The notes below the pieces were generated by a model, which saw only the letters and a list, made by a program, of their open reading frames with translations, made no database searches and had not been told where the DNA came from. Shown here one piece after another: positions 2 through 40,699 of a DNA stretch of 64,000 nucleotides. The stretch's first letter is position 1, and every line of letters starts with the position of its first letter. Source of the DNA: a plasmid. The stretch lies in sequence record NZ_CP049149.1; one strand, given 5' to 3'. The position numbers and the translations under genes were made by a program.

Positions 2-541
2 TTCGCAGCTGGCTACACACAGGGCGTCTTCCAGCTGGAATCTGGCCCAATGCGCAAGCTGCTTAAAGATCTGGGTAGCGGTATCGAGCCAATGAGCTTT
101 AAAACGGTTGTCGCGACCACCGCGCTCTTCCGCCCCGGCCCCATCCAGTCAGGCATGTTGGATGACTACGTTTCTGTGGCCAAAGGCTTCATGCCACCAC
201 ATTCCTTGCACCCAATGCTAGACGATATATCTCGCGATACAAACGGCGTACTGATTTATCAGGAGCAAATCATGGCTGCTACGCGAATCCTGGCGGGGTT
301 CTCAATGGCGGAAGCAGACTCGGTCAGGAAAGCGATCGGGAAAAAAGATATGGAAAAAATGAAATCCATTGGTGGCGACTTCATTAAGCGAGCGGAGAAA
401 GGCTGGGTGACAGTGTCACTTGATGATGGTTCTACGCGGAAAATTCATAAAACGGCACGTTTGCTTTGCGCTGATGGTGAGCGTCGTACTTACGCCGAAG
501 CAATGGCTGTAAATGCCGACATAACGAGCTTCGATATTTGA
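2..541 (+). CDS. dnaE: DNA polymerase III alpha (DnaE-type) fragment, 5' partial. It ends shortly after the LIYQEQIM...GKKDMEKM region.
   Basis: FQLESGPM, ALFRPGPIQSGM and LIYQEQIMAA motifs match the E. coli DnaE core. The frame is open to the window start. A stop 43 codons after AEKG does not match DnaE. Confidence 0.8.
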   Translation, partial: FAAGYTQGVFQLESGPMRKLLKDLGSGIEPMSFKTVVATTALFRPGPIQSGMLDDYVSVAKGFMPPHSLHPMLDDISRDTNGVLIYQEQIMAATRILAGFSMAEADSVRKAIGKKDMEKMKSIGGDFIKRAEKGWVTVSLDDGSTRKIHKTARLLCADGERRTYAEAMAVNADITSFDI

Positions 542-6918: not shown

Positions 6919-9264
6919 ATGGCAAAAGGAAAATCCGCTCTTGCGCTGGCACTGAAAAAGAAAATTGGCAGCAACGACGAAATTCAGAAGGTCACGCACT
7001 GGATTGACAGTGGCTACCCTCCGCTGAATAAAGCGATCTCCGGACGTTTCGACGGCGGCTTCCCATGTGGGCGCATCGTTGAGGTATTTGGGCCACCAAG
7101 CGCGGGGAAATGTGTTACCGCAGACACCATGCTGCTGACGGAGCGTGGAATGGTAACAGTGAAAGAACTGTTTGAGATTGAGGGGCACAAAGCAACATGC
7201 ACTACTCGCGATGTAGAGCATAACGTTGGACTCATCAATGAAAATGGCGTGATAGAGAAGACCTCACACCTGACATGGAACAACCGTCGCAAATTCAAGC
7301 GCATTAAGCTGGCATCAGGGGGTTACATCGAGGCTACGTTCCGTCACCCAATTCGTGTGGTTGACGACTTAGGCAATATCGTCTGGCGGTATGCTGAAAA
7401 AATCAGTGTAGGCGACACGATTCCTTCAATGGTTGGCACACATCAATTCGGCGATCAGCACTTGGACGCCAATATCGCAAAACTGATGGGCTATTTAATT
7501 GCTGACGGATACGTGGCCTCTGAAAATTCTGTGCATTTTTCTAACACAGATCCATTCATCAAGGATGAGTACTACCGCCTCATTTCGCTGGTATCAGACA
7601 AGATGCCAGTTACGAGAAAACATAACGGCTCGGAAGACCATGTGCTGTTTAGCAAAGAGGTGCGTTCGCTGCTTTTTAAAGAATATGGTCTGGAGTATGA
7701 GAAAGCTGCTGGCAAGCAGGTTCCGTTGAGTGTGCGTCGCGCCAATAGCGAGGCTCAAATTGCATTCCTTCGCGGCTACTTTGAGCTGGAATGCCACGTC
7801 AATGATGGTCGCTGCATTGAGGTTGTGAGCGCGAGTGGGCTGCTGCTACAGCAAATTCGCCTCATGCTCCTGAATCTGGGGATTACGTCAACTATCTCTG
7901 AAAAACACGTCGCAGGTTATAAAAACATATATTACCGGCTGTCATTCAGTGGCTCTAACTACGACCTTTTCCTGTCAACGATTGGGTTCGAGTCTCCGGC
8001 TCGTTTAGCAGTGGCAACCAAACGGGACATTAGTTTTGACCGCACTTATTTAGGCTACGTTCCGCACATCAGCGGCTTAGTGAAATCACTCTACGAGTCA
8101 CTCACCAAGACCTCTCGTAAAGACTACGTTCTGGTAGATCACGTTATTGGCCGCGGCGATCGTGTCGGAATAGACAAACTACGAGAAATCTATGTCTCCT
8201 TCATTGGCAGAAAGAATCGTTTTAACGAGCATCTGTTTGCACAACTGGCAGCGGTAATTGACTCTAACTTGTTCTACGACGAAGTCGTGGCTATTGAGGA
8301 AGGTGAAGCACCAACGTTCGACGTAGCGATGCCGGAAACACACTCTTTCTGGTCTAACGGGATTATCAGCCACAACACATTCCTCGCGACGGCTGCAATG
8401 GTGTCAGCACAGAAACAGGATGGTCTGGCCGTATTCCTCGACCACGAAAACAGTTTTGACGTTGGCCTGGCAGTGGCTAACGGTCTGAACGCAGATGAAG
8501 ATGACGGCCAGTGGGTCTACAAACAGCCTGACACCTTCGAAGATTCGGTTGAGCTTATTGGCACCATCCTCAAGCTGGTGCGCGATGAAGAGTTAATTCC
8601 GGAAGACGCACCAATTTGTATCGTGGCCGACTCGCTGGCGTCTATGGTGCCGAACTCCAAAGCCGAGAAGTTCGACAAGATGGCGGATGGCACCGCGAAG
8701 GACAAAGACCAGCTGAATATGAACGACAATACGGCGCTGGCGCGCGCGACGAGTGCGAACTTCCCTACTCTGGCGCTCTGGGCGAGAAAATATAACGCCT
8801 GCATCATTTTCTTGAATCAGGTGCGTACAAAGATTGGTGTGATGTTTGGCGATCCGACAACGTCTCCGGGCGGCGACTCGCCAAAGTTTTACGCGTCAGT
8901 GCGCATCCGTCTGGGTGCATCTGTCATGAAGGACGGCAAAGACAAGATTGGGCAAGACGTGGGTGCCGAGTGCATCAAAAACAAAGTGGCGACGCCATAC
9001 GGCAAATGCTCATGGAAGTTTTACTTCGACCCGAGCCGCGGTCTCGACGTCATCGAGTCTTTAGTTGAGTACATGCTGGAAGAAGGATACCTGCCAAAGA
9101 ACGCCAGCGGCCGAGTAGAGATTGGCGACAAGAAGTTCACCAAATCGCAGATCGTCGACATGTACCGCGAGAAGCCCCTTTCGGAGATCATCGCAGCGCT
9201 GCAAGCGATTGACGAAAGACGTGCCAAAGAAACGGCACCAGAAATCGAAGAAGAAGTTGAGTAA
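6919..9264 (+). CDS. recA: RecA/UvsX-family recombinase interrupted by an intein in the Walker A motif
   Basis: Exteins GRIVEVFGPPSAGK|TFLATAAM, FLDHENSFD, KQPDTFEDSVELI and VADSLASMV align with RecA GRIVEIYGPESSGKTTL, FIDAEHALD, SQPDTGEQALEI and VDSVAAL. The ORF is 781 aa against an expected ~359 aa. Confidence 0.85.
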   Translation: MAKGKSALALALKKKIGSNDEIQKVTHWIDSGYPPLNKAISGRFDGGFPCGRIVEVFGPPSAGKCVTADTMLLTERGMVTVKELFEIEGHKATCTTRDVEHNVGLINENGVIEKTSHLTWNNRRKFKRIKLASGGYIEATFRHPIRVVDDLGNIVWRYAEKISVGDTIPSMVGTHQFGDQHLDANIAKLMGYLIADGYVASENSVHFSNTDPFIKDEYYRLISLVSDKMPVTRKHNGSEDHVLFSKEVRSLLFKEYGLEYEKAAGKQVPLSVRRANSEAQIAFLRGYFELECHVNDGRCIEVVSASGLLLQQIRLMLLNLGITSTISEKHVAGYKNIYYRLSFSGSNYDLFLSTIGFESPARLAVATKRDISFDRTYLGYVPHISGLVKSLYESLTKTSRKDYVLVDHVIGRGDRVGIDKLREIYVSFIGRKNRFNEHLFAQLAAVIDSNLFYDEVVAIEEGEAPTFDVAMPETHSFWSNGIISHNTFLATAAMVSAQKQDGLAVFLDHENSFDVGLAVANGLNADEDDGQWVYKQPDTFEDSVELIGTILKLVRDEELIPEDAPICIVADSLASMVPNSKAEKFDKMADGTAKDKDQLNMNDNTALARATSANFPTLALWARKYNACIIFLNQVRTKIGVMFGDPTTSPGGDSPKFYASVRIRLGASVMKDGKDKIGQDVGAECIKNKVATPYGKCSWKFYFDPSRGLDVIESLVEYMLEEGYLPKNASGRVEIGDKKFTKSQIVDMYREKPLSEIIAALQAIDERRAKETAPEIEEEVE
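7111..8376 (+). mobile_element. intein (422 aa) with a LAGLIDADG homing-endonuclease domain, inserted after the P-loop Lys
   Basis: Starts with Cys (CVTADTMLL, block A). TFRH is block B. Two LAGLIDADG motifs (LMGYLIADGY, FLRGYFELE). Ends ...IISHN followed by Thr at +1. Confidence 0.85.
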
Positions 9265-10382: not shown

Positions 10383-10717
10383 AAACACGGCTTGCTCTGG
10401 CTGTTTTGCTCTTATCCCATTCCATTTCTGCTGACACTCGCATTTATGAGTGCGAGATGTCTGTGGCCGAAACAAAAAAAGACACGCTGACAAACGTCGT
10501 TAAAGCGCCCTATGGAGCGATGGTTGTGGATAGCGGGGAGCAATTTTACATCGTTCGCGATGACCGCGTTTTGTCCTCTCCTTACCTTACAAGACGCGAC
10601 AACAAACTGACCGGCGTCGGTGAGGACAAGCTTGTTTACAACAAATCAGGTGATAGCTACGGCGTTCACGCAAAGGACGCCAGTTACCTTTTCGATGACT
10701 GCAAGGAGGTTGGTTAA
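10379..10717 (+). CDS. secreted protein with a signal peptide (112 aa)
   Basis: MKTRLALAVLLLSHSISA looks like a signal sequence. Confidence 0.4.
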   Translation: MKTRLALAVLLLSHSISADTRIYECEMSVAETKKDTLTNVVKAPYGAMVVDSGEQFYIVRDDRVLSSPYLTRRDNKLTGVGEDKLVYNKSGDSYGVHAKDASYLFDDCKEVG

Positions 10718-10929
10718 TGGCGATGACACTGACAGGTCTGGAAATCGAAAAAACGAGCGGCTACTGGCGCGCCAAAGGATTCAGAAAGTCCGATGTGATG
10801 GAGCGCCTGGAGCGTGAAGACGGCTTTATAGTCCACCAGCGTCGCGAATGGCGCATGTACGATCCGGAAAGCGGAAAGCTCACATCCAAAGCACAAACCC
10901 TCTGGGGGCTGCTGAAAAAAATCATCTGA
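10717..10929 (+). CDS. hypothetical protein (70 aa)
   Basis: Translationally coupled ORF. Confidence 0.3.
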   Translation: MAMTLTGLEIEKTSGYWRAKGFRKSDVMERLEREDGFIVHQRREWRMYDPESGKLTSKAQTLWGLLKKII

Positions 10930-10989
10930 TCCATTATCCACTATGGGAAGAACCACTTCCCATAGTGGTTATCTTGCCCGTAATAGCAA

Positions 10990-11475
10990 CATCATAGCGC
11001 CTACCGCTGACAGCATACGTTTGTCTAAATTCGCCCCATTTTTACCGCTGACAGCATATCTTTTAGTCGCTCAATTTACCGCTGACAGCATACGTTATGA
11101 CCACAAGACAAGGTTTACCGCTCACAGCATATCCAAACATCACCTCATACCGCTGGCAGCATATCGACGTTTTTCGCCTCTGTGGGCGCTCTATCAGGAC
11201 GAGAAAAACAATCAAGTTAGTGAGTGCAAACCCTTATTTCATGCGGCTTGCGGGGTTAGTGACCACTGGGGAAGTTGTCGCGGGAAATGGGATCGAAGAG
11301 GCGCGCAGACCAGATAACGGCGGGCTAATGAGCAAAATCGCCCGCTGATATCATACATTTTCTAAAAATTACCGCTCACAGCATATCTTTTTGCCGCTGA
11401 CAGCATACTTAATGTGAAAAATACCGCTGACAGCATATCTTGTACCGCTGGTAGCATACGTTTTACCGCTGACAG
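10990..11475. repeat. iteron array downstream of repA (incA-like). Ten copies of a ~19-bp repeat TTACCGCTGACAGCATAYS in two clusters.
   Basis: Repeats read directly at about 10993, 11043, 11078, 11113, 11148, 11367, 11389, 11421, 11443 and 11463. Confidence 0.85.
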
Positions 11476-11479
11476 CATA

Positions 11480-12583
11480 TCAAAGGAGTTTCAGGCTGTT
11501 GGAGAGAATCTCGATCAGCTTGATGTTTTCGGGCGTCAGGTTCTGCGATAACTCGGTGATTTTGTTCACGAGGTTTTGTTTTGCATCGACACCAGAAGAC
11601 GTGCTCTCGACCGGCTTATCCGGAAGCGCGGGCATTTCCTCTTTGACCGAAGAGGCTTTGAGCTTGGGATTGCGGCTGTGGATCTGAATGTAAATCGAGC
11701 GGCCACGCTTAATCTCGCTGTATTCGAGATAGCCCAATTCCTCCAGCGTTTTTAAGCCGTTGCGGATGGTCTGATTCTGCGAGCTGACGTTACGACTACT
11801 CAAATTAAGTCTGGCTCGAAGCCTTGCCAGCGATACTGGTGCCGGTTTGGCTGGAAGACTTTCGATGAACGTATACAGCGCCTGGGCGGTCTCTTTGCGC
11901 GGCAGCTTGTTAATGACTTTTAGCTGGAGCAGCACTTTGTGGTCGAAGCGATAGAGTTCGGCCAGCTTCGGCTCTGCGTGAAAGATGATGGAGTCTTTTT
12001 GCTCGTTGTAATCGACGCTGTTCACCAGGTGAACCATCAGGAGCGAGATTTTGTTCGAGCCGTCGACGTTCTTTTCTTCATACGTGCGCTGGAAAGAGAG
12101 CGTGGTGCGCATGATCTTCAGGAGGCTGTTGGTGAGCCTGTCACGCAGCGTCTTGCGGATCTGCGACGACGGATAGCCGCAGAATTTGGCGAACTTGGTA
12201 ATGCTCAACTCGACGCGGCCACTCGGCTCCCCGTACTCGGCCAGAGAGCGAACGACGCCGACCCACGTTTTAAAATCGTGATCCATATCCAGGCGTGGAC
12301 CTGTTATCTTGATGTCGGAATACCCTTCTGAACGAGCAACCTCCAGCTGAACCAGTTCTTTTGAGGCGTCGATCTCATTAGGTCTGTTCCGCTTGCTGTT
12401 CTTTGTTCCCTTTAGCGTGGGCACGAACAAACCAAGCCTCATCAACGCTATAGGCTGAACAGTATTGTTGCTGTTTGGAACAAGATCGCCTGTGTATAGT
12501 TCGAGGGATTCTTCTTCAAAATTATCTATACTGTCGTCTAACACATTGTTTTTGGTTTCTTTTTTCTTTCGAGTGGGCATGTT
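11480..12583 (-). CDS. repA: plasmid-type replication initiator RepA (iteron-binding)
   Basis: Flanked on both sides by iterons. Size about 367 aa. Genomic architecture is identical to the P1/F-type replicon. The start is taken at MPTRKKKE. Confidence 0.7.
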   Translation of the reverse strand, partial: NMPTRKKKETKNNVLDDSIDNFEEESLELYTGDLVPNSNNTVQPIALMRLGLFVPTLKGTKNSKRNRPNEIDASKELVQLEVARSEGYSDIKITGPRLDMDHDFKTWVGVVRSLAEYGEPSGRVELSITKFAKFCGYPSSQIRKTLRDRLTNSLLKIMRTTLSFQRTYEEKNVDGSNKISLLMVHLVNSVDYNEQKDSIIFHAEPKLAELYRFDHKVLLQLKVINKLPRKETAQALYTFIESLPAKPAPVSLARLRARLNLSSRNVSSQNQTIRNGLKTLEELGYLEYSEIKRGRSIYIQIHSRNPKLKASSVKEEMPALPDKPVESTSSGVDAKQNLVNKITELSQNLTPENIKLIEILSNSLKLL

Positions 12584-12595
12584 GACACCTTTCCG

Positions 12596-12705
12596 CTTCC
12601 AACCGCTGACAGCATACGTTATTTGCCGTTGGCAGCATACCAAAAACAGATGGCAGCATATCGCTTACCGCTGACAGCATATCGCTTACCGCTGACAGCA
12701 TACGC
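12596..12705. repeat. iteron array upstream of repA (incC/origin-like), five copies
   Basis: Same CCGCTGACAGCATA core at 12601, 12624, 12644 (partial), 12664 and 12685. Confidence 0.85.
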
Positions 12706-12740
12706 GAATACCCGTTGAGGCCAGGCGTGGCGCGGTCTGC

Positions 12741-12815
12741 GAGGATCGGGGATCTCTTTTGATCTATATAGGGATCTATACGGGATCTAATTAATAGGAT
12801 CTACCCTGTGGATAA
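12741..12815. promoter_or_regulatory. origin-associated GATC cluster (6 GATC, GGATCTA heptamers) plus a DnaA box TGTGGATAA (12807-12815)
   Basis: gaggatcggggatctcttttgatctatatagggatctatacgggatctaattaataggatctaccctgtggataa read directly. Confidence 0.7.
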
Positions 12816-12902
12816 TGTGAATAACTAAAACAGGCGTTTGCGAACATTGCCGTACTTCATGCGCTATGTTTGCGGCGAGCAACAATAACGTGAATTAAGA
12901 AT

Positions 12903-13547
12903 ATGGATCTAAAACGCACACGCTGGGTACGCCGCCTTGAGGATGGCTCCTACACCATTGAGTCAAACACCAACCTGAACAAGCAGAAGCTCCTCTGTGA
13001 ACTGTGTGGCATTGCTTCCAAATGTCCGATTAACGAAGCGCGCATAAAACTACATGAGGCAGGCGCCCACTTTCACCTGAATAGCTGCATCAGATACGTG
13101 CCTCTGCTGGCATTTCGCAAACCGATCATCGGATTAGACGCGCCCTACTTCAACACGCTGCGCTCTGGCGTGACATGGCGAGACCGCGTCGAACCAGGAA
13201 AGCTTGTTTGTCTGGTGGAGGCTGATACTGGAAAGATCATCCGGTTTGGCAAAGTGGACAAGGTCTATTCCGGGCCGGTGGATGAGATGCTGCGTAAACA
13301 CAGCCGGTTCAACCATCTGTGTATGGGCGGAGAGAAGATCGAGAAGGTGAGCGAAGTTATCCGCAAATCTTACGGACACTTTCTCAAAGACGACAGCCTG
13401 CTGACGGCCATTTACGTCAAACACCTCGACCGGGAGTTCGACACCGAATATCACAGCGAGGAAGAGCTACATCTCGTTGACCCACGTCCAAAAGCAGGGG
13501 TGATCGACATCAACATAGCGCGTCAGAAGCCCTCAGAGACGATTTAA
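12903..13547 (+). CDS. hypothetical protein (214 aa)
   Basis: ORF. No motif recognised. Confidence 0.4.
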   Translation: MDLKRTRWVRRLEDGSYTIESNTNLNKQKLLCELCGIASKCPINEARIKLHEAGAHFHLNSCIRYVPLLAFRKPIIGLDAPYFNTLRSGVTWRDRVEPGKLVCLVEADTGKIIRFGKVDKVYSGPVDEMLRKHSRFNHLCMGGEKIEKVSEVIRKSYGHFLKDDSLLTAIYVKHLDREFDTEYHSEEELHLVDPRPKAGVIDINIARQKPSETI

Positions 13548-14178: not shown

Positions 14179-14382
14179 CAGCTTTGCTGAATGGCTGCGA
14201 TTATAGAGTGCGCTTTAACGGATATGAATGTTTGATACCATGTAAAAATAGGTATGTAATTACTTATATCTTTTGCGATAATCATGCGCCTATACATTTC
14301 CTTATGTGCCGTGCTGACCAGATTGTTCGCCTCTCAAGCACGCTTAGAATTTGTATCAAAACAACCACAAAGGAAAAGACAC

Positions 14383-15468
14383 ATGACTGTTCCATACGGG
14401 GTGATTTCAGATCCCCATTATCATCGTTGGGATGCTTTTGCGACAACTAACTCTGACGGTCTGAACTCCAGACTGGAGATTCAACTCGACGCAACCAAAG
14501 AAGCGGCGAGAGCCATGAAAGCGGCAGGATGCCAGTACATGCTGGTGGCTGGCGACACGTTCCATGTACGAGGCGCAGTATCACCTTCCGTTCTGCACTT
14601 TGTCACAGAAACCTACGAGTGGATCATCAAAGAGCTTGGCCTTGAAGTGGCTATGCTGGCCGGGAACCACGACCTCGAAACTAACGACTCTGTCTACAGC
14701 GCCAACGCTGCGGCGTCGTTGCGCTCGATTGGCGTGGAGATCGTCTGCGGCAAGCGTGCCCACTCCATCAAAATGGGTGACGTTACCGTTCATATGATGA
14801 GCTGGCGCAACAACCACGCGGAGCTTATCAGCGACCTCAAGACACTGCGTTCCGGGCTGTCTGGCGACAAGCATGACGTTGTAGTGCATACCTCGATCAA
14901 CAAAGCAATCCCAACGATGCCAGATGTGGGCATCGATGCGCAGGAGCTGAAAGACATTGGCTTCCGCCTGCTCTTGTCTGGCCATTACCACAATCACAAA
15001 GAAGTGCTGCCGGGTGTGGTGAGCATCGGCGCTCTGACACATCAGAATTGGGGCGATGTGGGGTCGCTGGCCGGTTTCATGATCGTGAACCCAGACGGCA
15101 CTTTCACCCACCACGAAACCTCGGCGCCCAAGTTCGTGAACCTGGAAGACGACGTCGACGATTCGCTGATCCGCGGCAACTACGTGCGCTTCCGCGCCGT
15201 CGTCGAAAGTGATGAAGAAGGCATCAAAATCCAGAACGTCCTTAAAACGATGGGAGCCAAAGGCGTCGTATGCAACTTCATCCGCAAGGCCTCAATGATG
15301 GAAGGCACTGCCAGCACCGCAGAGACCAGCAAGATTGACAGCCTGGGCGAGTCCGTTGCGGCCTACTGCAAGATCGTCCACGACACAGACGGCGGCTTCG
15401 ACCTGAGCAAACTGGACATGTTGTGTCAGGAAATCCTGACCGAAGCAGAGAGTGCGGAGGCAGTGTGA
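14383..15468 (+). CDS. sbcD: SbcD/Mre11-family nuclease (T4 gp47-like)
   Basis: Calcineurin-like phosphoesterase motifs DPHYH, GDTFH and GNHD. Followed by a Rad50-like gene. Confidence 0.75.
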   Translation: MTVPYGVISDPHYHRWDAFATTNSDGLNSRLEIQLDATKEAARAMKAAGCQYMLVAGDTFHVRGAVSPSVLHFVTETYEWIIKELGLEVAMLAGNHDLETNDSVYSANAAASLRSIGVEIVCGKRAHSIKMGDVTVHMMSWRNNHAELISDLKTLRSGLSGDKHDVVVHTSINKAIPTMPDVGIDAQELKDIGFRLLLSGHYHNHKEVLPGVVSIGALTHQNWGDVGSLAGFMIVNPDGTFTHHETSAPKFVNLEDDVDDSLIRGNYVRFRAVVESDEEGIKIQNVLKTMGAKGVVCNFIRKASMMEGTASTAETSKIDSLGESVAAYCKIVHDTDGGFDLSKLDMLCQEILTEAESAEAV

Positions 15469-15701
15469 TGACGACCGGTTCTGCGGGCTTTTACGACTAT
15501 GCGAGCGCAATGGAGAGGCTTGCTCGTGGGCAGACCGTGATGGTTCACAAGCCCTACCCGTCTGGTGGGAATCCCCTGGCGTTTTATCTGGGAAGACTGA
15601 CAGAACAAGGTGTGTTGAAGCGCCAGTCTTTTCCGGCTCACACAGAGTTCAGATTACAAAAAGGTCAAAAACTGACGCGTAAGATCAGAGGCGTTAAATG
15701 A
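15469..15701 (+). CDS. hypothetical protein (77 aa) between sbcD and sbcC
   Basis: ATGA-coupled at both ends. Confidence 0.35.
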
Positions 15702-17614
15702 AATTTTTAAAGCTCACCGTTGAGAATTTTATGGCGCTGGCCATCGCCGAAGTCGAACTGGATCAGCGCGGGCTGGTGCTCATCCAGGGCGTTAACAGCG
15801 GCGACTCTTCCGCAGCCAGCAATGGCGCGGGCAAATCGACCCTGATGAACAGCTTGATGTGGTGTCTTTATGGCGAAACAGCGCATGGCGTAAAGGGTGA
15901 CGATGTGCTGTCGACGGGGCATGAGAAAAACTGTCGAGTCATGGTCACAATCGAAGACGAGGGTAAGCGTTACGCCATCATTCGTCATCGCAAACACAAA
16001 GAGTTCAAAAACCGGCTGATCGTGCGTGGCGAAGACGGCGACATGACCAAAGGCAAGGATACGCTGACGCAGGAGTTTGTAGAGCGTCTGATTGGCGCGT
16101 CAAAAGAGGTCTTCATGGCTTCCATATACGCCAGTCAGGAAGCCATGCCAGATCTGCCAGGCATGTCCGATAAAAACCTCAAAACCATCGTGGAGGAAGC
16201 TGCTGGTGTCGACCGCCTGACTCGGGCCTATGCCATCGCTCGCGAACGTGCCAACGCGGCCGCAGCGCGCATGGACGTCACCAAATCCAAAATGGATGCC
16301 TGTCTCACACTTATTGAGACGGCGCAGGCGGAAATTGAATCTGCCAAAACCTCATCTGAAAGCTGGGAGCGTGAGCGTGGCGAACGTCTGGATAAGGCTC
16401 GCGTCGACTTGGCCGGTGCGGAAGTCACGCTGGCCGAGGTCGTGATGGAAATGCGCACGCTGCCAGAGCAAATTCGCGATACAGAAAACGCTATCGCCAC
16501 CGAACGAGAGAAGCTGGCCTCTAAAGAAGAGCATGATGCGAAGCTACTGAAGGTGCGTGGCGCTGTCACTGAGATCCGCGCCAATATCCGCACAGCAGAG
16601 GCCGCACAAAATGACGCCATGAGTCGTGCTCGTGCATTCAAAACCAAAGCGGAGGAGGTTAACACCAAAGTTGGAGCGCCCTGCTCTACGTGTGGCAAAC
16701 CTTACTGCGAAGAAGATTTATCAACCGTGAAGGAGGGGTTAATTGAACAGGCTCGCAATGAGATCAGCCAGGCGCAGGCATTTGCAACGGCAGTGGCTCA
16801 ACACAAAACGCGTCTTGAAAAGGCGCTCGGAATCGAATCCGCTCTTGTCGCAGCAACCCCCGACGTGTCTGCCATCATTGCCAAAATCGAACGACTGACA
16901 AATGAGCTGAGTGCATTACGCCATCGCGAACGCGAACTGTCGGCTGTTGAAGCGCTGGTCGCGAGAGCGCGCAATGAGGTCAATCGCATTATCGCTGAAG
17001 CCAACCCATTCATTGCGGTCATTAAACGCCATGAAGAGAACCTGGCTGCCAATAAATCTAATTATGCAGTACTTAAAACTGAGTTAAATAATATTCAGGA
17101 GCAGGCTTTGCTGTTAGAGAAAGCTCGCCAGGTTTACTCACCAGCTGGCGTTCGCTCTCACATCCTGACCTCCGTCACGCCTTTCCTGAACGTCAGGACA
17201 GCGGAATACCTCAACACGCTTTCAGACGGCAATATCGTGGCTGAATGGTCAACGATGGAGACAACCAAGAAAGGTGAATATCGCGACAAGTTCAATATCA
17301 GCGTGACGAAAACAGGTTCCAGCAAATCCTTCCAGACACTATCAGGTGGCGAAAAACGTAAGGTGCGCATTGCGTGCTCGCTGGCTCTGCAAGATCTGGT
17401 TGCCAGTCGCGCGAGCAAGAGCATAGAGCTGTTTATCGGCGACGAGATCGACGACGCGCTCGATACAGCGGGGCTGGAGCGTCTCATGGGGATTCTGGAG
17501 TCCAAAGCGCGCGAGCGCGGCACAGTCATGATTATCTCGCACAAAGAGATGAAGTCCTGGTTCCGGGAAACCATTACTGTCGAAGTGAAAGAGGGGCGCA
17601 GCTATGTCGTTTAA
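15698..17614 (+). CDS. sbcC: SbcC/Rad50-family ATPase (T4 gp46-like)
   Basis: Walker A GAGKSTL. Long coiled coil with a CxxC zinc hook (GAPCSTCGKPYC). Signature LSGGEKRKV. Walker B LFIGDEIDDALD. Confidence 0.8.
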   Translation: MKFLKLTVENFMALAIAEVELDQRGLVLIQGVNSGDSSAASNGAGKSTLMNSLMWCLYGETAHGVKGDDVLSTGHEKNCRVMVTIEDEGKRYAIIRHRKHKEFKNRLIVRGEDGDMTKGKDTLTQEFVERLIGASKEVFMASIYASQEAMPDLPGMSDKNLKTIVEEAAGVDRLTRAYAIARERANAAAARMDVTKSKMDACLTLIETAQAEIESAKTSSESWERERGERLDKARVDLAGAEVTLAEVVMEMRTLPEQIRDTENAIATEREKLASKEEHDAKLLKVRGAVTEIRANIRTAEAAQNDAMSRARAFKTKAEEVNTKVGAPCSTCGKPYCEEDLSTVKEGLIEQARNEISQAQAFATAVAQHKTRLEKALGIESALVAATPDVSAIIAKIERLTNELSALRHRERELSAVEALVARARNEVNRIIAEANPFIAVIKRHEENLAANKSNYAVLKTELNNIQEQALLLEKARQVYSPAGVRSHILTSVTPFLNVRTAEYLNTLSDGNIVAEWSTMETTKKGEYRDKFNISVTKTGSSKSFQTLSGGEKRKVRIACSLALQDLVASRASKSIELFIGDEIDDALDTAGLERLMGILESKARERGTVMIISHKEMKSWFRETITVEVKEGRSYVV

Positions 17615-18929: not shown

Positions 18930-18966
18930 GTCCGATATTGATAGATAAGTGCTTATCTAATAACAT

Positions 18967-18998
18967 TAAGCCACTACATATAGTGGCTTTTTTTTTTG
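18967..18998 (+). terminator. rho-independent terminator (gccactacatatagtggc followed by T10)
   Basis: Perfect hairpin plus T-run. Confidence 0.7.
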
Positions 18999-19006
18999 GA
19001 GGACAC

Positions 19007-21355
19007 ATGATAACCATCGTTAAACGTAACGGTTCAACTGAGCCGCTGTCAGAGGAAAAATATAATCGCGTTGTGATGTGGGGCGTAGAGAACATTCGCA
19101 ACGTTAGCGCGTCTGCCATCGCTATGGGCGCAGCCGCAAGCATTTTTGATGGTATGACCACCAGCCAGCTGCATGAGGCTCTGGTGAAGTCAGCTGCCGA
19201 TTTAATCTCTAAAGAGACTCCGAACTATTCCCAGGTTGCGGCGCGTCTGAGCCTGTTCAAGATCCGCAAAGATGCGTTCGGCCAGTACGCTTACCCACAC
19301 TTCTATCACCACATTGTGAGCAACGTTAGCCGCAGTGTTTATGATGAAGAGCTGCTGAAATCCTACACTCGTGAGGAAATCGACGAGCTGGGTGCCTACA
19401 TCAAGCCTATGCGCGACGAGTTTTTCAGCTATGCCGCCACCGTTCAGCTGGCCAGCAAGTACCTTGTTCAGAACCGCGTTACTGGTCAGGTTTATGAGGC
19501 GCCGCAGCAGCTCTATATGCTGGTGGCCATGTGCCTGTTCCAGAATTGGGAAGATGGCTGTGCGGGCAAATCTCGACTGGAGATGGTCAAAGGCTTCTAT
19601 GACGTCACCAGTACCTTCAAACTCTCTCTGCCAACACCCATCATGGCCGGTGCTCGTACTCCGACTCGCCAGTTCTCCAGCTGTGTGCTGATTGAGGCAG
19701 AAGACAGCCTGAAAGGGGTTAGCGCTGCATCTGCTGCGATTATTGACTATGTATCGCGCCGTGCAGGTATTGGCATCGGCTTTGGTCGTCTGCGTGCGCT
19801 GGGCAGTGAGATCCGCAATGGCGAAGCTATCCACACTGGCGTTATCCCGTTCCTGAAACATTTCCAGACCGCAGTGAAGTCTTGCTCCCAGGGCGGCGTT
19901 CGTGGCGGCGCGGCGACAGCGTACTACCCAATCTGGCACCTCGAAGTTGAGAGCCTTTTGGTAGTGAAAAACAACCGGGGTGTTGAGGAAAACCGCGTCC
20001 GTCACCTGGACTATGGCGTGATGATAAACCGTCTGATGTATCGCCGTCTGGTACGCAACGAAAACATCACTCTTTTCAGCCCACATGATGTACCGGACCT
20101 GTACGATGCGTTTTTTGCCGATCAGGACAAATTTGAAGAGCTGTATGCACAGTACGAAGCAGATGAGAGCATTCGTAAGAAGTCGATTCCGGCTGTGGAA
20201 CTGTTCTCTACGCTGTTGCAGGAACGTGCTTCTACTGGCCGCGTGTATATCGCCAACGTTGACCATATGAACGAGCACGGGTCTTTCGATCCGGAAGTTG
20301 CGCCGGTTCGCCAGTCCAACCTCTGCGCGGAGATCACGCTGCCAACCAAACCGCTGGCTTACACTGACGATCCGAATGGTGAAATCGCGCTTTGCACCCT
20401 GTCTGCCTTTAACCTCGGGGCAATCGACTCTCTGGACAGCCTGAAAGATGTCGCGTTCTATGCGGTTGCGGCTCTGGATTCACTGCTGGACTATCAGGAC
20501 TACCCGCTGGCTGCTGCCGAAGTTCCGGCAAAAGCACGTCGTAGCCTCGGCATCGGCGTAACCAACTTCGCCTACTATCTGGCCAAGAACGGCTTCAACT
20601 ACTCCGACGCCGCTGGCAACCAGCTGGTGCATGAGACGTTTGAAGCGATCCAGTATTACCTCCTCGATGCAAGCTGCCGCCTGGCTGAAGCCAAAGGCGC
20701 GTGTGAGTGGTTCTCCCACACCAAGTATGCGAAGGGGCTGCTGCCTGTAGACCATTACCGCAAGACGCTGGACGCCAATCCAGAAACGTCCTTCGAACTG
20801 AAAATGCCGTGGGAAGAGCTGCGTGGCCGCATTCTCAAGCATGGTCTGCGTAACTCGACGCTGTCTGCCCAGATGCCTTGCGAGACTTCCAGCCAGATCA
20901 CCAACTCCACCAATGGCATCGAGCCGCCGCGCGGTCCGGTTTCCGTCAAGTCTTCAAAAGACGGCATTGTGAAGATGGTTGTTCCGGATTTCGAGCAGCT
21001 GAAAGACCAGTACGAGTACCTCTGGGATATGCCGGACAACCACGGCTATCTGACGAAGGTGGCAATCATCCAGAAGTTCTTCGATCAGTCTATCTCGGCC
21101 AACACCAACTATGACCCGACTCGCTTCCCTGGCGACAAGGTTCCAATGATGAAGCTGCTTGAAGACTTGCTCTACGCGTACCAGCAGGGCGTCAAGTCCC
21201 TCTACTACCACAATACGCGTGATGGCGCTGGCAAGCGCGACGATGAAGAGTCTGCCTCTCCGGAGCCGACTGTGGTGGTCAAGCCCGAACCAGTGGCTGA
21301 ACCAGAACCCGTTGTTGAGCGAGAAGAAGAATACGACTGCGGTTGCAAGATCTGA
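19007..21355 (+). CDS. nrdA: ribonucleoside-diphosphate reductase alpha subunit (class Ia)
   Basis: ATP-cone start MITIVKRNGSTEPL after GGAGG. SNLCAEI and catalytic regions match. Length about 782 aa. Confidence 0.85.
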   Translation: MITIVKRNGSTEPLSEEKYNRVVMWGVENIRNVSASAIAMGAAASIFDGMTTSQLHEALVKSAADLISKETPNYSQVAARLSLFKIRKDAFGQYAYPHFYHHIVSNVSRSVYDEELLKSYTREEIDELGAYIKPMRDEFFSYAATVQLASKYLVQNRVTGQVYEAPQQLYMLVAMCLFQNWEDGCAGKSRLEMVKGFYDVTSTFKLSLPTPIMAGARTPTRQFSSCVLIEAEDSLKGVSAASAAIIDYVSRRAGIGIGFGRLRALGSEIRNGEAIHTGVIPFLKHFQTAVKSCSQGGVRGGAATAYYPIWHLEVESLLVVKNNRGVEENRVRHLDYGVMINRLMYRRLVRNENITLFSPHDVPDLYDAFFADQDKFEELYAQYEADESIRKKSIPAVELFSTLLQERASTGRVYIANVDHMNEHGSFDPEVAPVRQSNLCAEITLPTKPLAYTDDPNGEIALCTLSAFNLGAIDSLDSLKDVAFYAVAALDSLLDYQDYPLAAAEVPAKARRSLGIGVTNFAYYLAKNGFNYSDAAGNQLVHETFEAIQYYLLDASCRLAEAKGACEWFSHTKYAKGLLPVDHYRKTLDANPETSFELKMPWEELRGRILKHGLRNSTLSAQMPCETSSQITNSTNGIEPPRGPVSVKSSKDGIVKMVVPDFEQLKDQYEYLWDMPDNHGYLTKVAIIQKFFDQSISANTNYDPTRFPGDKVPMMKLLEDLLYAYQQGVKSLYYHNTRDGAGKRDDEESASPEPTVVVKPEPVAEPEPVVEREEEYDCGCKI

Positions 21356-21486
21356 TAAGCGTGGGGAGAAATCCCCACTTTTTCATTTTGTTGCACGCCT
21401 TATTTTCACCAATAAGATAACAACTTGTTTTGATAGTCATTAAAACAAATTGTTAAAACCATTCGATAACATTCAAAGGGAAACAC

Positions 21487-22629
21487 ATGAGCTATTCCAC
21501 TTTCCGTTTGGGCGCTAACGACGCAACAAAAGAGCCAATGTTCCTCGGGCAGTCCGTGAACGTGGCGCGCTACGATCAGCAGAAATACCGTGACTTCGAA
21601 AAGCTGATTGAAAAACAGCTCTCTTTCTTCTGGCGTCCTGAAGAGGTCGATATCACCACTGACCGCATCGACTTCAACAATAAGCTGCAAGAGCACGAGC
21701 GTCATATTTTTCTGAGCAACCTGCGTTACCAAACGCTTCTGGACTCCGTTCAGGGTCGCAGCCCAAACGCGACTCTGCTGCCGCTGATCTCCATTCCTGA
21801 GCTGGAAACGTGGGTTGAGACCTGGTCGTTCTCTGAAACTATTCACAGCCGTAGCTATACGCACATCATCCGCGGCATGGTGGACGATCCGAGCACCGTC
21901 TTCGATGGCATAGTGGCTGATGAAGAGATTATCAGCCGGGCTATCAGCATCTCTTCCGAGTATGACAAGCTCTATGACATGACCTGCGCGCGCCAGCATC
22001 TCGGCGAGGATGAGTTCGAGCGCCTGTATGCTGCGGATTTCGACGGAAAGCCCTACCCTCTTCACCGTCAGCTGTTCCGTACACTGGTCTCCATCAATTC
22101 GCTTGAGGCGATCCGCTTCTATGTGAGCTTCGCGTGTACGTTCGCTTTTGGCGAGCGAAAACTGCTGGAAGGTAACACCAAAATCATGCGCTTCATTGCG
22201 CGCGATGAGGCACTTCACTGTGAAGGTACTGAGCGTATGCTCCGCTTCATGCGCACCGGCCGTGAGGGGCTGCTGTGGAAGCAAATCGCTGCTGAGGAGG
22301 AGAATTACATCTATCAGACCATGATGGATGTGGCAGGACAGGAAATGCGCTGGGCTGACTATCTGTTCAAAGATGGTTCGATGATTGGTCTGAACGCGGA
22401 AATCCTCAAGACCTATGTAAAATACCGCACCAACCTGGCAATGCGTCGCCTGGGTCTGAACCCACTGTTCCCGGAAATCAAAGACGATCCGCTGGTGTGG
22501 ATGAACAAATGGCTGTTCTCCGACACGCTGCAAATTGCCCCGCAGGAAGCAGAGCAAAGCACCTATCTCGTTGGTCAGATTGACTCGACTGTCGACCGCG
22601 CAGGTCTGAACCAGTTCGCTGACCTTTAA
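21487..22629 (+). CDS. nrdB: ribonucleoside-diphosphate reductase beta subunit
   Basis: Di-iron/tyrosyl radical protein pattern ([21 protein letters not shown]). Ends ...[20 protein letters not shown], the R1-binding tail. Follows nrdA. Confidence 0.85.
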
Positions 22630-29619: not shown

Positions 29620-30225
29620 ATGGAAAGAGCAATGATTGCAGCTGAAAAAATCAAAAAGCGAGAGCGAGATGCCTCTCTTCGAGACCTTTGGCGCACTCCC
29701 AAATGGTTGTTTATCGCCATCCAACGATATATAGGCGCCGAGTTCGATGTGGACGTCGCCTGCAACAAGGATAACGCGTTACTGCCCAACTACATCGGCG
29801 TTGAACGTGATGCCCTGAAAAGCAGCTGGGGTGAGCCTGGCACCGTGGCATTTCTAAACCCGCCCTACTCCCGGATATCTCCTTGGATCGACGCGGCCAT
29901 TCGGGAGCAGGCGCGTGGCGTAACGACAGTCATGCTGATCCCACAGTCCCTCGATACCCAATGGTATGAACGCGCCACTGAGTGCGCCAACGAGACCGTT
30001 ATTCTGTCTGGCGGCCGTGTGGCGTTTGTGGAGCCGGATGTCGAGCTGGGGCTGGTGGAGGTCAACGTGAATCCCGGTGGCAGTATGCTGGTCATCTTCC
30101 GTGGGTTTTGTCAGGAAGCTGGGCATGTCATCAGCAAGATACCGCTGGCGGTGATGAAAAAGCTGGGTGGTTATGATCCTGCCAATGTCATCAGAAAGAA
30201 AAGACCAGTTAAGAAGGCAGCTTGA
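29620..30225 (+). CDS. dam: phage-type DNA N6-adenine methyltransferase (Dam family)
   Basis: FLNPPYS catalytic motif. Architecture of the phage Dam_MT family. Confidence 0.75.
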   Translation: MERAMIAAEKIKKRERDASLRDLWRTPKWLFIAIQRYIGAEFDVDVACNKDNALLPNYIGVERDALKSSWGEPGTVAFLNPPYSRISPWIDAAIREQARGVTTVMLIPQSLDTQWYERATECANETVILSGGRVAFVEPDVELGLVEVNVNPGGSMLVIFRGFCQEAGHVISKIPLAVMKKLGGYDPANVIRKKRPVKKAA

Positions 30226-34407: not shown

Positions 34408-37400
34408 TTAAATCCTTCCTCCAACCCCTTTAAATTTTTCGATAAACGCCCCAATTTTTTGGAATACGGTCTGCTTTTTCGTTTTGTACTGAGGATTCAG
34501 TGGACTGAGTTTTGGTAGCGTCTCATTTAACTCCGTCCCATTTTCGGTAGCATATTCCCGTTTGAGTGATGTACGGATATAGCGCCTTGCCGCCTCTTCA
34601 TTGAGGTTTTCTTCCTTAATCAACGCTTCCGCTTCCTGTTGCTGTTCACGCTGAGCATAGGTAAAGAATGCATCAATGATACTGGCCTTATCCGGCATGT
34701 CATCAAGGTTAGTTTGCTGAATAAAGTCAACAATCAGACCTTCTTTGGCACGGTTGCCCAGACTTGACCGGATTAAGCGTCGGACCTCTTCAGTCAGGGC
34801 TTCTTTACCCTTTTTCTGACGGTTGTGGTCAAAAATCAGGCCCAGAATGTAGTCCAGGTTAATCTCTTGCGACTTGAGCAGGTCAATTTCAAACACCACG
34901 TCATCCCAGTCCGTGGTTGATGTATCCCTGTCGTTTGCTGCTTTTTCACGTCGCTGCCAGTCCCGGATATCATTGTAAGCTGAGCGGTAGTCCTGAACTT
35001 TACGTTCGGCAGGGAGGCGAATGGTTTGTAATTCAGCAAATTTTTCATCATCCACGTAGTGCTCTGCTTTAAAGGTTTCTACCGCTTCCGGGTCACTAAT
35101 ATCAACCTTCTGCAGGGCTTTCAGCGTGGCAAATTCATCGTAGTTTTGCAGGATGTTTTCTGCCCGCAGATATTCACCAAACAGTTTGACGAAGGCTTTT
35201 TTCTCTTTTTCACTGTCGATACTGGCAGGGTCAGGGAAGCGCTGCTCCAGCTCCGAAACAATAGACATAAAACCTCGTTTAGCTTCGCCGGTTGCCGCAT
35301 CGCTAAAGCCCTGCATGTACTCTTCGTAGCTTTTTTCCAGTACCACATTCTTGGTGTTTTTGTCGCCAAAAAGTGTAATGGCATCAATGGTGGGACGCTC
35401 CAGGTCCCTGAAAGTCACGATATTGCCGAAGGTTTTGGTTGCATCATAGATACGGTTGGTGCGTGAGAATGCCTGCATCAGACCGTGATAACGCAGGTTT
35501 TTGTCAACGAACAGAGTATTGAGAGTCGGAGCATCAAAGCCAGTCAAGAACATTCCCACCACGATGAGAAGGTCAATATCCTGATTTTTCACTCGTTGAG
35601 CTAAATCGCGGTAGTAGTTCTGGAAACCGTTACTGTCGGTGCTGAAATTGGTTTTAAAGTGATTGTTATAGTCATCAATGGCTGAATCCAGGAATTCCTT
35701 TGCGCTGCTGTTCATTGCACTGGTATCAAAACTTTCGTCGGTAATATCACCAATGGCGCTTTGCTCTTCATTAGCAGCAAAAGAGAAGATAGTTGCAACC
35801 CGAAGGCGTTTATAGCTGCCTGATTTTTTTGCTGCTTCTTCCTGTAGTACTTTAAACGTCGAGTAATAAGCTTTTGCCGCTTCCACACTGCTAACTGCTA
35901 ACATGGCGTTAAAGCCCTTAGCTCCCGGGAAGGTTCGGTGCGTTTTCTGACGGAAGTTATTGAGAATGTATTGCGTTATTTCCTGGATACGCAGTGGGTG
36001 TAAAAATGCCTGTTGGTTTTCAGCCGCGCTGAGTTTTTTCTCATCAGTTTCCGTTTCAAGAGACTTAAACTGTGGGCGGACATCGTTATAGTCCACCTTA
36101 AACTTCAGCACTTTTTCATCACGAATCGCATCAGTAATGACGTAAGAATGTAATTCACGCCCGAAGACGCTGGCGGTGGTTTCTGCCCCCAGTGCATTTT
36201 CCGGGAAAATAGGCGTACCAGTAAAACCAAACTGATAAAAGCGTCTGAATTTCTTTTTGAGGTTTTTCTGGGCCTCACCAAACTGGCTGCGGTGACACTC
36301 ATCAAAGATAAACACCACCTGCTGCTGATAGACGGGCAGGTCAGCTTCGGCTTTCATCAGATTATTGAGTTTCTGAATGGTTGTGACGATAATTTTGTTA
36401 TCGTCCTTATCCAGGTTTCTTCTGAGGCCTGCTGTATTATCCGAACCATTGACACTGTCCGGAGAGAAGCGCTGATACTCCTTCATGGTCTGGTAATCGA
36501 GGTCTTTCCTGTCGACCACGAAGAAGACTTTATCGATAAAGTCCAGCTCAGTAGCCAGACGTGCGGCCTTAAAGCTGGTCAGGGTTTTTCCTGACCCTGT
36601 GGTATGCCAGATAAATCCACCGCTTTCGGGTTTTGACCAGTTCTTCGCTTTAAAAGAGCTGTTGATTTTCCAGAGAATGCGCTCGGTGGCGGCAATCTGA
36701 TAGGGGCGCATGACGAGCAGCGTCTGGCTGCTGTCAAACACGCTGTAATTAAACAGAACATTCAGCAGAGTATGCTTCTGGAAGAAAGTGGCGGTAAAGT
36801 CCTTCAGGTCCTTAATCAGAGTGTTATCCGACTTCGCCCAGTTCATGGTGAAATCAAAGCTGTTTTTATCCCGCTTAGTGGTACTGGCAAAGTACCGGGT
36901 ATCGGTTCCGTTAGATATCACAAACAGTTGCAGGTATTTAAACAGAGAGTTGTCGCTGTTAAAGCTTTCCTTACTGTAACGGTGTATCTGGTTAAAGGCT
37001 TCACGAATCGCCACGCCGCGCTTTTTGAGTTCGATTTGCACCAGCGGCAGGCCGTTGACCAGAATCGTAACATCATAACGGTTAGCGTGTGAGCCGGTCT
37101 GTTCAAACTGCTGAATGACCTGCACCTTATTGCGCAGCAGGTTCTTTTTATCTATCAAATAGATGTTTTCCAGACGACCATCATCAAACGTAAAATCACA
37201 GATATAGTCGATATGGATTTTACGGGTTTTGTCCAGGCTGCTGTCACTGGGGCTGTCCAGATATTGCTCTGCGAAGCGCCGCCATTCACTTTCGTTAAAC
37301 ACCACACCATTAAGACGCTGAAGCTGGTCCCGCACATTCGCCAGCATCGCAGTCGGTGACTTAACGGAGATAAACTCATAACCCTGATTAAGAAGATCCT

Positions 37401-37524
37401 GAATCAGCGCCCGCTCAAGGTCCGATTCGCTCTGGTAGCTGTCACCGGTATCCATAACTTTTGTGTATTTATCAAGGACGATAAAGTTATTGGATTCAGC
37501 AATAGTGTGTGTTTGATGAGTCAT
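34408..37524 (-). CDS. hsdR: Type I restriction enzyme R subunit (Type IC, EcoR124-like; 1038 aa)
   Basis: SF2 motifs TGSGKTLTS and [10 protein letters not shown]. The ~1038-aa length is what I recall for EcoR124 HsdR (from memory). Downstream of hsdM-hsdS on the same strand. Confidence 0.85.
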
Positions 37525-37645
37525 AGCGCATCCTTTGTGCCGCCTGGCAAGGGCCGGAAGGGAGTTAAGAGTGACTTCCGGCGTGTAAAAAATAGTCTAT
37601 ATACTGACCGGGTGTTAAGGTGGCCCGATCGGTAGCAATGGTCAA

Positions 37646-38914
37646 TTAATTACTGACAGTTTCAGGTTTCGGGAAACTGAAAAGTAAATCACGGTAGTAT
37701 TCGTATTGTTTCTGGCGCAACTCGATTTCACGCGGGAGACCTTCAGTGATGGAGTTGGTCAGTGTGTCGAATTTATCCAGAATCCGAACGATTTCAGACT
37801 GGATGGCAAGGGATTTTTCCGGATTGTCCGGGCAGGGGATTGGGATTTTCAGTTTGTTTAAAACGGATTGTGTTTGGCTTGGTACTCCTCCTGCTTGGTT
37901 CATTTCGCCAAGGCCAACCGTCGTTAAGAAGTAGTAAAGATACTTTGGCCTAATTTGTGCTTCATCAATTTCCGTATAAAAAATGGTGTCAACGGTCCAG
38001 AATGGAACATCGATGAAAAATAAATTACCAAGCGAGCCTTTTCTCGGAATTAAGACTGAAGGCTTATTATAGGCATAGGTATCTACATATCGCATGATTC
38101 CACCTGAACCGTAAACAGGGAACTCGCCTTCGCTGAGAGATTTATGATCCTTGCCATTTCTGATGCGAGCCAAATCACTCAATGGCAACCACTCAACCTC
38201 AACCCCATCCAGCAATTTTTCCAGATAAATAGGTTTTTCCTGCTCCTCATCAAAACTCAGCAACTGGTCGCGATAGTAGTTGTACTGCTTTTTGCGCATG
38301 GTAAGTTCAGCTGTAAGTTCAGCTGTAAGTTCAGCTGTAAGTGCAGTAAACTTATCCAGAATCCGGACGATTTCAGACTGGATAGCAAGGGACTTGTCCG
38401 GTTTATTCGGACAAGGTATAGGGATTTTGAATCCTCCCATTACTGCTGAGTTCAAGTTGTTGATGGTTGAGCTATTCAACATTTCATCGAGATATTTTTG
38501 AAAAATATCACTTGTTAAAACGTGAAATAAATAACGCGGATTTAATTTTTCATCGCATCTGACAACACCCATAAATCCGCCAAAGTAGTAGTCAATATCT
38601 GATTCAATGTAAGCAACTTTTCCAACATGTTCACGGCTACCACTTGCTGCGCTTATCAGTATGTCGTCCTTATATAGTTTTTGCGAATCCTTTACTTTGG
38701 TGTCAAACTTCACCAGTTTGACATCATTTAAATTTAAACAATTACTAGACAAAGTGATATTGTTAGCACGAAGGACCCTGTAACCTTGACCATCTGCGCT
38801 TTCATTCGATTTGCTGTAAGTTAAACCACGTATATATTTCGCGACTTCTCCCAGAGTCTTCCACTCAACAACAACTCCATCTAGCAATTTGTCTAGATAA
38901 CTCAGCTTGCTCAT
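37646..38914 (-). CDS. hsdS: Type I restriction specificity subunit with central TAEL x3 repeat
   Basis: Duplicated conserved regions ([14 protein letters not shown] twice). Two TRDs. Central [13 protein letters not shown] encoded by 12-bp tandem repeats at about 38290-38340. Confidence 0.85.
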
Positions 38915-40467: not shown

Positions 40468-40699
40468 TTTGTATCCTGTTGTATGATTCTTAAGTACTGT
40501 TATTGGCCCGATTTTATCGCAATTTCATATTGATGACAGGCTTTGTATGTCATACGTTGCACTGAGAGTTCGTTTGCCCGGTTGTGTAGCCAACACTCTT
40601 TCAGTCAGGCCAGTAGAAACGTTGTGCTGACGATAAATACTGAAGCCCCAATACTATCGGGGCTGAACGTTCAGTCGGTGAGAATTTCTTCATCCGTAT

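Follow-up and report, generated by a model that had tools for sequence, protein, structure and literature searches.

A probable plasmid-prophage replicon, homologous to P1 oriR-repA-incA, in an SSU5-like phage-plasmid

The plasmid sequence NZ_CP049149.1 carries, in the 64,000-nt stretch analyzed here (termed "the window"), a gene for a replication initiator, repA, which is flanked on both sides by arrays of 19-bp direct repeats (iterons) and is accompanied by GATC sites and DnaA boxes. A preliminary description, made by inspection of the window, regarded this locus as a P1 oriR-type replicon of a phage-plasmid. Our analysis delimited the following features, listed here by position:

10935-10971, plus strand: hairpin, directly after the stop codon of a convergent gene for a 70-aa protein (PHROG 804)
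11001-11165, minus strand: distal downstream iteron cluster, incA-like (11147-11165, 11115-11133, 11076-11094, 11042-11060 and 11001-11019; spacing 32-41 bp)
11216-11274, plus strand: conserved non-iteron element of 59 bp, within the spacer that separates the downstream iteron clusters
11339-11481, minus strand: proximal downstream iteron cluster, incA-like (11463-11481, 11442-11460, 11421-11439, 11391-11409 and 11369-11387, closed by a degenerate copy at 11339-11357)
11480-12580, minus strand: repA, coding for a 366-aa Rep_3 (WH1-WH2) initiator, with the Shine-Dalgarno sequence GGAAAGG 7 nt before the ATG
12600-12704, minus strand: five direct 19-mers upstream of repA, the origin iterons, incC-like (12686-12704, 12665-12683, 12644-12662, 12623-12641 and 12600-12618)
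12616-12643, minus strand: weak promoter candidate for repA, TTGGTA-16 nt-TAACGT, within the two iterons nearest to repA (from sequence and alignment)
12705-12743: GC-rich spacer with the core CCGCGCCACGCCTGG, between the GATC block and the iterons
12744-12801: AT-rich block with six GATC sites in heptamers TAGATCC and variants, aligned to the Dam sites of P1
12807-12824, minus strand: two tandem DnaA boxes at the outer end of the origin, aligned with the annotated 18-bp DnaA site of P1 oriR

The preliminary description had made its reading depend on the similarity of RepA to Rep_3/RepFIB initiators in a profile hidden Markov model search. Such a search matched RepA to the Pfam family Rep3_N (PF01051; E=7.7e-9, 36.5 bits vs a curated cut-off of 22.4), so the reading withstood it; among the PHROG families, PHROG 775 was matched with E=8e-132. 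In tblastn comparisons RepA was 42% identical to the RepA proteins of P1/P7 over 82% of its length (E about 5e-65), 45% identical to RepA of the Salmonella phage SSU5, and 84-90% identical to those of SSU5-like phage-plasmids from E. coli and Klebsiella. The search for homologues returned 478 proteins, and among those listed PF01051 was present in 120/120, under the names of RepB-family or RepFIB initiators. An AlphaFold2 model, for which the input alignment comprised 30 sequences, had a mean pLDDT (predicted local distance difference test score) of 72, with the core residues 70-305 well predicted, disorder at the N-terminus, and, at the C-terminus, a helical hairpin (residues 331-365) predicted with confidence. 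Foldseek comparison of this model with the PDB gave as top matches domains 2-3 of RctB, RepE, a pPS10-type complex of Rep with a DNA unwinding element, pi and TrfA, all of which are winged-helix iteron initiators. Searches by sequence in NCBIfam and in the PDB found nothing, although the PDB was matched at the level of the fold. Many RepA entries in databases begin 38-41 codons further upstream, within the origin iterons, and are accordingly 404-407 aa long; these longer forms are probably over-extended, because the ATG at 12580 is preceded by a good Shine-Dalgarno sequence and gives a P1-like layout.

The iterons share a 14-nt core that reads CCGCTGACAGCATA on the plus strand, the full 19-mer being GATATGCTGTCAGCGGTAA in the sense of repA. 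When up to three mismatches were allowed, the core had 26 matches in the window vs 5.4 expected, a number that was reached in 0/100 shuffles. Sixteen copies (0-3 mismatches) lie between 11004 and 12702 in one orientation throughout, and every match with 0-2 mismatches in the whole window falls inside this interval, the matches elsewhere being scattered and having three mismatches. Upstream of repA the cores are found at 12603, 12626, 12647, 12668 and 12689, with a spacing of 23/21/21/21 bp. Downstream of repA there are ten clear copies and a degenerate one, all oriented like the origin iterons: the proximal cluster has cores at 11466, 11445, 11424, 11394 and 11372 plus the degenerate copy (core at 11342), and the distal cluster, behind a spacer of ~190 bp, has cores at 11150, 11118, 11079, 11045 and 11004. 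The first downstream iteron (11463-11481) overlaps the TGA stop codon of repA. The five upstream and ten downstream iterons of the preliminary description are therefore borne out by the core scan; the eleventh, degenerate downstream copy and the two-cluster layout of the downstream set go beyond it. The publications that we found contain few particulars of such replicons; one of them (PMC6735626) reported just four iterons downstream of repA and no known domain in RepA.

The first of the two DnaA boxes, TTATCCACA at 12807-12815 (minus strand), is perfect, and corresponds to the consensus box that had been noted beyond the upstream iterons; the second, TTATTCACA at 12816-12824 (minus strand), has one mismatch and extends the feature 9 bp beyond its end as first described. 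The six GATC sites previously placed in 60 bp were found within 58 bp, spaced 14, 11, 12, 10 and 7 bp from the DnaA-box end towards repA. They form the only cluster of at least four GATC sites in the window, and six sites were reached in 0/1000 shuffles. The G+C content of this block is 0.35-0.40, and that of the neighboring GC-rich spacer 0.58-0.62. The same GATC phasing was found in P1, SSU5, and the phage-plasmids PhiR41_1 from E. coli and pJN2-26 from Klebsiella; the block is presumed to be the Dam/SeqA-sensitive opening region. The spacer contains a motif, CCGCGCCACG.CTGG, that is common to the window and P1 and differs by one or two substitutions in JK004. The hexamer pair TTGGTA-16 nt-TAACGT at 12643-12616 is a weak candidate for the repA promoter, at a position that would be homologous to that of PrepA in P1. 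An Rfam search of positions 10400-13400, with E-values up to 1, gave no match.

We compared the locus with the annotated features of the P1 record and aligned the origins with MAFFT. The P1 record presents, in order, an 18-bp DnaA site, five Dam sites, five incC iterons containing PrepA, repA and nine incA iterons; PrepA sits in iterons 10-12, the incC iterons (10-14) have a spacing of 21/21/21/22 bp, and incA iteron 9 overlaps the stop codon of repA. The order repA, upstream iterons, GATC sites and DnaA box, earlier said to equal that of P1 oriR-repA-incA, could be matched to this record feature by feature. The window and P1 thus share tandem DnaA boxes, phased GATC heptamers, a GC-rich spacer, five 19-bp iterons ~21 bp apart, the position of the repA promoter within the iterons, and a downstream array that begins on the repA stop codon, as well as the origin motifs TTATCCAC, TAGATCC, AGATCCC.GATC and that of the spacer. 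Over the stretch that extends from the DnaA boxes to the end of the GC-rich spacer, P1 and the window have 75% nucleotide identity (92/122 columns), and the alignment thus shows homology to the P1 origin beyond mere analogy. The iteron block, in contrast, is just 46% identical, which fits iterons that co-evolve with their cognate RepA. The differences are that the iteron sequence is GATATGCTGTCAGCGGTAA in the window and GATGTGTGCTGGAGGGAAA in P1, that there are six GATC sites rather than five, that the window, unlike P1, has no DnaA box on the repA side of the iterons, and that RepA is 366 aa long, with N- and C-terminal extensions, vs 286 aa in P1. The virion genes and the backbone of the element are unrelated to those of P1, being siphovirus-like and of the SSU5 type.

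The window is collinear with SSU5 in gene order, virion genes included, and contains terminase and capsid domains. The region 10900-12900 is 97-99.6% identical to nine plasmids from Cronobacter sakazakii, C. malonaticus, Citrobacter and Enterobacter, which are non-mobilizable and 51-111 kb long (eight of them 100-111 kb); one of the relatives, pGK1025B_1, is circular and typed as rep_cluster_763. Three of these nine, pH322_1, pCS1 and pGK1025B_1, have been published as SSU5-like phage-plasmids (PMC9169379). Collinearity with SSU5, the terminase and capsid, and near-identity of the replicon region to described SSU5-like phage-plasmids show that the element was correctly recognized as a phage-plasmid. 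The SSU5 supergroup, which comprises SSU5/pHCM2, pSLy3, pKpn/pKPHS1 and the Cronobacter plasmids pCS1, pH322_1 and pGK1025B_1, has IncFIB-typed replicons (PMC7969092; bioRxiv 10.1101/2025.09.12.675607). It shares with the window, in synteny, dnaE, the genes for a gp32-like single-stranded DNA-binding protein (SSB) and an exonuclease, recA, the gene for the 70-aa protein, repA and an open reading frame (ORF) for a 214-aa protein, followed by sbcCD, nrdAB, thyA, a gene for dihydrofolate reductase (DHFR) and dam, and the position of the replicon is identical. SSU5/pHCM2-type members differ in having a RepA only 45% identical to that of the window and iterons of the sequence CCACTGTAGTGAG in mixed orientation. 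Further features that set the window apart are a dnaE interrupted by an HNH ORF, a recA with an intein, and a cargo of a type I restriction-modification (R-M) system with an insertion sequence (IS).

The same order and spacing of features were found in P1, JK004, PhiR41_1, pJN2-26 and SSU5, and the architecture is found again at RepFIB-type loci of Morganella, Xenorhabdus and Salmonella. The window, PhiR41_1 and pJN2-26, whose repA genes are ~78% identical or more at the DNA level, share the iteron core ATGCTGTCAGCGGT; the iterons of SSU5 are of the type given above, and those of P1 and JK004 read TGTGCTGGAGGG. The iteron type thus tracks RepA across lineages. The RepFIB replicons of F-type plasmids, P307 and virulence plasmids, as displayed by a locus on a 116-kb Salmonella plasmid, resemble the window in combining a Rep_3-type RepA with iterons on both sides, DnaA boxes and a GATC cluster; they differ in RepA (~50% identical), in the iteron sequences, and in their carriers, which are conjugative or virulence plasmids and not a phage genome. 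More distant is RctB of Vibrio cholerae, whose domains 2-3 the RepA model resembles most closely in structure: ori2 of V. cholerae likewise has iterons, a DnaA box and control by GATC methylation (PMC6090056). RctB is, however, much larger than RepA of the window, has no homology to it at the sequence level, and uses GATC-containing 12-mers, with 39-mers for negative control. A preprint that deals with copy-number mutants mediated by repA is about a CopA/CopT phage-plasmid of the IncFII type and has no bearing on the replicon of the window.

Taken together, homology in sequence, fold and architecture, which for the origin core extends to the nucleotide level, iterons that vary in step with RepA, and the occurrence of the locus in circular phage-plasmids of 100-110 kb make it very probable that positions 10935-12824 constitute the plasmid-prophage replicon of an SSU5-like phage-plasmid, homologous to P1 oriR-repA-incA. 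It is a member of the known IncFIB/P1-type, SSU5-supergroup family, and is largely ordinary, without a new mechanism. From the literature on P1 and RepFIB we infer dependence on DnaA and Dam, autorepression, and copy control by the downstream arrays; the background is the established biology of these replicons, which is summarized in the feature notes of the P1 record. RepA monomers would bind the five direct origin iterons while host DnaA would occupy the two tandem boxes, and both proteins would jointly open the adjoining AT-rich, GATC-rich block. Opening would require full methylation, and the hemimethylated block would be sequestered by SeqA, which would gate re-initiation. RepA bound to the repA-proximal iterons would repress its own promoter. 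The 10-11 downstream iterons would not be part of the origin; they would titrate RepA and handcuff the origin iterons, giving rise to low copy number and incompatibility. By analogy with P1, the element may also have separate plasmid and lytic modes of replication; an origin for the lytic mode was not identified.

Several observations weigh against this interpretation or against its details. The downstream iterons of the window (10-11) are all direct and form two clusters, in contrast to the nine incA iterons of P1, of which three are direct and six inverted; and since the downstream array is split by a spacer with a conserved element, its control logic may differ in detail from that of P1. 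No P1-type parAB was found beside the iteron array, and no P1-type ParA is encoded in the window. A scan of positions 10700-13000 for consensus sigma-70 promoters found none for repA. Finally, the window covers ~60% (about 64 kb) of an element of ~100-110 kb, so that a second replicon elsewhere is possible. The nine mixed-orientation incA iterons and the adjoining parAB-parS are P1-specific and do not characterize the family at large.

An improbable alternative is that the downstream arrays do more than exert negative control, acting as all or part of a second origin that depends on RepA, or being required in cis for initiation, as is seen in some iteron plasmids with several origins. The 10-11 copies are well conserved and uniformly direct, unlike those of P1, which are mixed in orientation; their two clusters are separated by a spacer with an additional conserved element; and a near-consensus DnaA box, TTATCCACT, is present at the distal edge of the arrays. 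This box is not conserved in PhiR41_1 or pJN2-26, however, and neither a GATC cluster nor an AT-rich opening region adjoins the downstream arrays, while the homologous array of P1 is annotated as an incompatibility determinant and is dispensable for replication. The incompleteness of the window would also allow the whole locus to be a conserved relic, with maintenance ensured by another origin outside the window, especially as SSU5 encodes its partition proteins, helicase and primase outside the region matched by the window. We consider this very unlikely: the repA ORF and all parts of the origin are intact, the features of the replicon are retained across lineages down to 42% protein identity, and plasmid-typing schemes take repA as a replicon marker.

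The repeats could in principle be recombination or attachment (att) sites rather than iterons, and the GenBank entry of pJN2-26 (MZ779062.1) indeed labels 20-bp repeats flanking repA as attR (1378-1397) and attL (2648-2667). With 15-16 copies rather than two, phased at 21 bp around a Rep_3 initiator in the exact P1 arrangement, and with the element being a circular plasmid, this explanation is scarcely credible. The attR and attL labels on the RepA iterons of pJN2-26 are very likely a misannotation.

Recognition of the locus as an IncFIB/P1-type replicon locates, at base level, the origin by which this phage-plasmid family is maintained, together with the probable determinants of its copy control and incompatibility. 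SSU5-type phage-plasmids are common in Cronobacter, Klebsiella, E. coli and Salmonella, and some members carry resistance genes. The assignments can be used in replicon typing and in predicting the coexistence of SSU5-like elements, as a single iteron core is common to the Cronobacter, E. coli and Klebsiella groups and SSU5/pHCM2 has another. They can also be used in correcting annotations, such as iterons called att sites or RepA starts set inside iterons.

The conserved element in the spacer between the downstream clusters consists of GTTAGTGAGTGCAAAC, 23 nt and GTTAGTGACCACTGGGG, with the starts of the GTTAGT repeat 39 bp apart. It is kept in seven lineages of the SSU5 supergroup, in which the flanking DNA, and in some cases the iterons, are otherwise unalignable, and in several of these lineages the first site is a perfect GTTAGT-N4-ACTAAC palindrome. 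Scanning IMG/VR with the query GGTTAGTNNNCACTGGG revealed at least 120 loci. Among the matches listed, a RepA homologue was present in 83, with the element 140-360 bp downstream of repA, and all two-site copies (85/85) were assigned to the replicon family described here; the two of these 85 that had no detectable repA both lie within about 350 bp of a contig end. The element runs opposite to repA in the window and in the E. coli and Klebsiella types, and in the same direction in SSU5 types. The loci of P1, JK004, Morganella, Xenorhabdus, Salmonella RepFIB and Rosenbergiella lack it, and a search of the window for further copies that might serve as operator sites found none that was convincing. 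A structured RNA was considered and is not supported, as the covariation term in RNAalifold was positive (unfavorable) and 1/14 pairs was compensatory. To our knowledge neither the spacing nor the sequence fits Tus-Ter, the SlmA binding site (SBS), FNR, IHF, XerCD/cer or the P1 parS consensus. We read the element as a putative protein-binding site that belongs to the SSU5 backbone.

The hairpin at the distal edge of the array has a perfect 13-bp stem, and its 16-nt arms are 94% complementary (dG -22.4 kcal/mol, z -4.5). The SSU5-type iteron pattern is matched twice in the window, by the two arms, TA(T/A)CCACTATGGGAAG, and nowhere else; one arm contains the DnaA-box variant TTATCCACT. In SSU5 the iteron array reaches up to the same 70-aa gene. 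The hairpin is a terminator-like boundary of the replicon, and it looks like what is left of an exchange of replicon cassettes within a conserved backbone, and would now double as a terminator. The papers that we found describe neither the GTTAGT element nor this hairpin. It is conceivable, if rather doubtful, that the downstream region is more than a sink for RepA: the GTTAGT element would bind a regulator of the backbone or the host that couples replication control to the state of the prophage, and the palindrome would be a leftover of a cassette swap or a decoy. The case for a regulator site comes from the persistence of the element whichever RepA and iteron type accompany it and whichever way it faces repA. 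A decoy palindrome, if real, would titrate the RepA of competing phage-plasmids of the SSU5/pHCM2 type and thereby lead to cross-incompatibility.

Apart from the replicon, the window contains the following genes and gene groups:

50-2490: dnaE, with an ORF for an HNH endonuclease within
4635: gp32-like SSB (PF08804, E=3e-69)
5706: 5'-3' exonuclease
6919: recA with an intein
upstream of 10929: small conserved ORFs
14284-17614: sbcCD
18938-22629: nrdAB
23768: thyA
25283: DHFR gene
29620-30225, plus strand: phage Dam-family N6-adenine methyltransferase (PF05869, E=7.4e-38)
34408-41868: cargo, type I R-M system and IS
51438: FljA-like repressor
53248: helicase
54872-56238: two ParB_N proteins
59132: terminase
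60421: portal (named after the annotation of pGK1025B_1; no Pfam match)
62937: capsid

The preliminary description also spoke of a full T4-like replication module, which is overstated. The T4-like functions in the window are confined to auxiliary roles and nucleotide metabolism, namely the gp32-like SSB, SbcCD, the 5'-3' exonuclease, NrdAB, thymidylate synthase and DHFR, with the SbcCD nuclease pair being the analogue of gp46/47. A T4-type replisome would comprise the family B polymerase gp43, a clamp with its loader, the gp41/gp61 helicase-primase and gp32, and the window departs from this set: the polymerase is DnaE (the alpha subunit of DNA polymerase III; PF17657, PF14579) and the recombinase is RecA. 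The helicase, primase, ligase and small ParA with its partner of SSU5 are encoded in the SSU5 region outside the match to the window. The two ParB_N proteins match phage families of ParB-like nucleases and partition proteins, and they are encoded away from the replicon. The claim that the element encodes its own Dam methylase at 29620 proved right insofar as the Dam-family gene is real; a link of this gene to the origin would be hypothetical, and enterobacterial hosts supply their own Dam.

The 214-aa ORF (12903-13547, PHROG 2105) is divergent and lies just past the DnaA boxes. It has no Pfam match, and occupies the same position in SSU5, PhiR41_1 and pJN2-26.

The dnaE region consists of an ORF with the finger domain of the polymerase III alpha subunit (50-541), an HNH/NUMOD3 endonuclease ORF (590-1324) and a C-terminal HHH_6 part (1321-2490), while dnaE of SSU5 is a single gene of 3519 bp; the arrangement in the window represents either a split gene or an intron-like insertion. 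The recA gene (6919-9264) codes for 781 aa, with an intein (Intein_splicing and a LAGLIDADG homing endonuclease) at about residues 73-486, and recA of SSU5 has only 1077 bp. The cargo is on the minus strand, with hsdR (34408-37524), hsdS (37646-38914) and hsdM (38911-40467) adjoining a DDE_Tnp_1 IS transposase gene (40741-41868), and related R-M cassettes are present in relatives from Klebsiella and Cronobacter. The ORF at 51438-51998 belongs to the FljA family, "repressor of phase-1 flagellin" (PF03614, E=4.5e-93; PHROG 1444, transcriptional repressor), of which SSU5 also has a member; its product may be a prophage regulator, or may alter the motility of the host.

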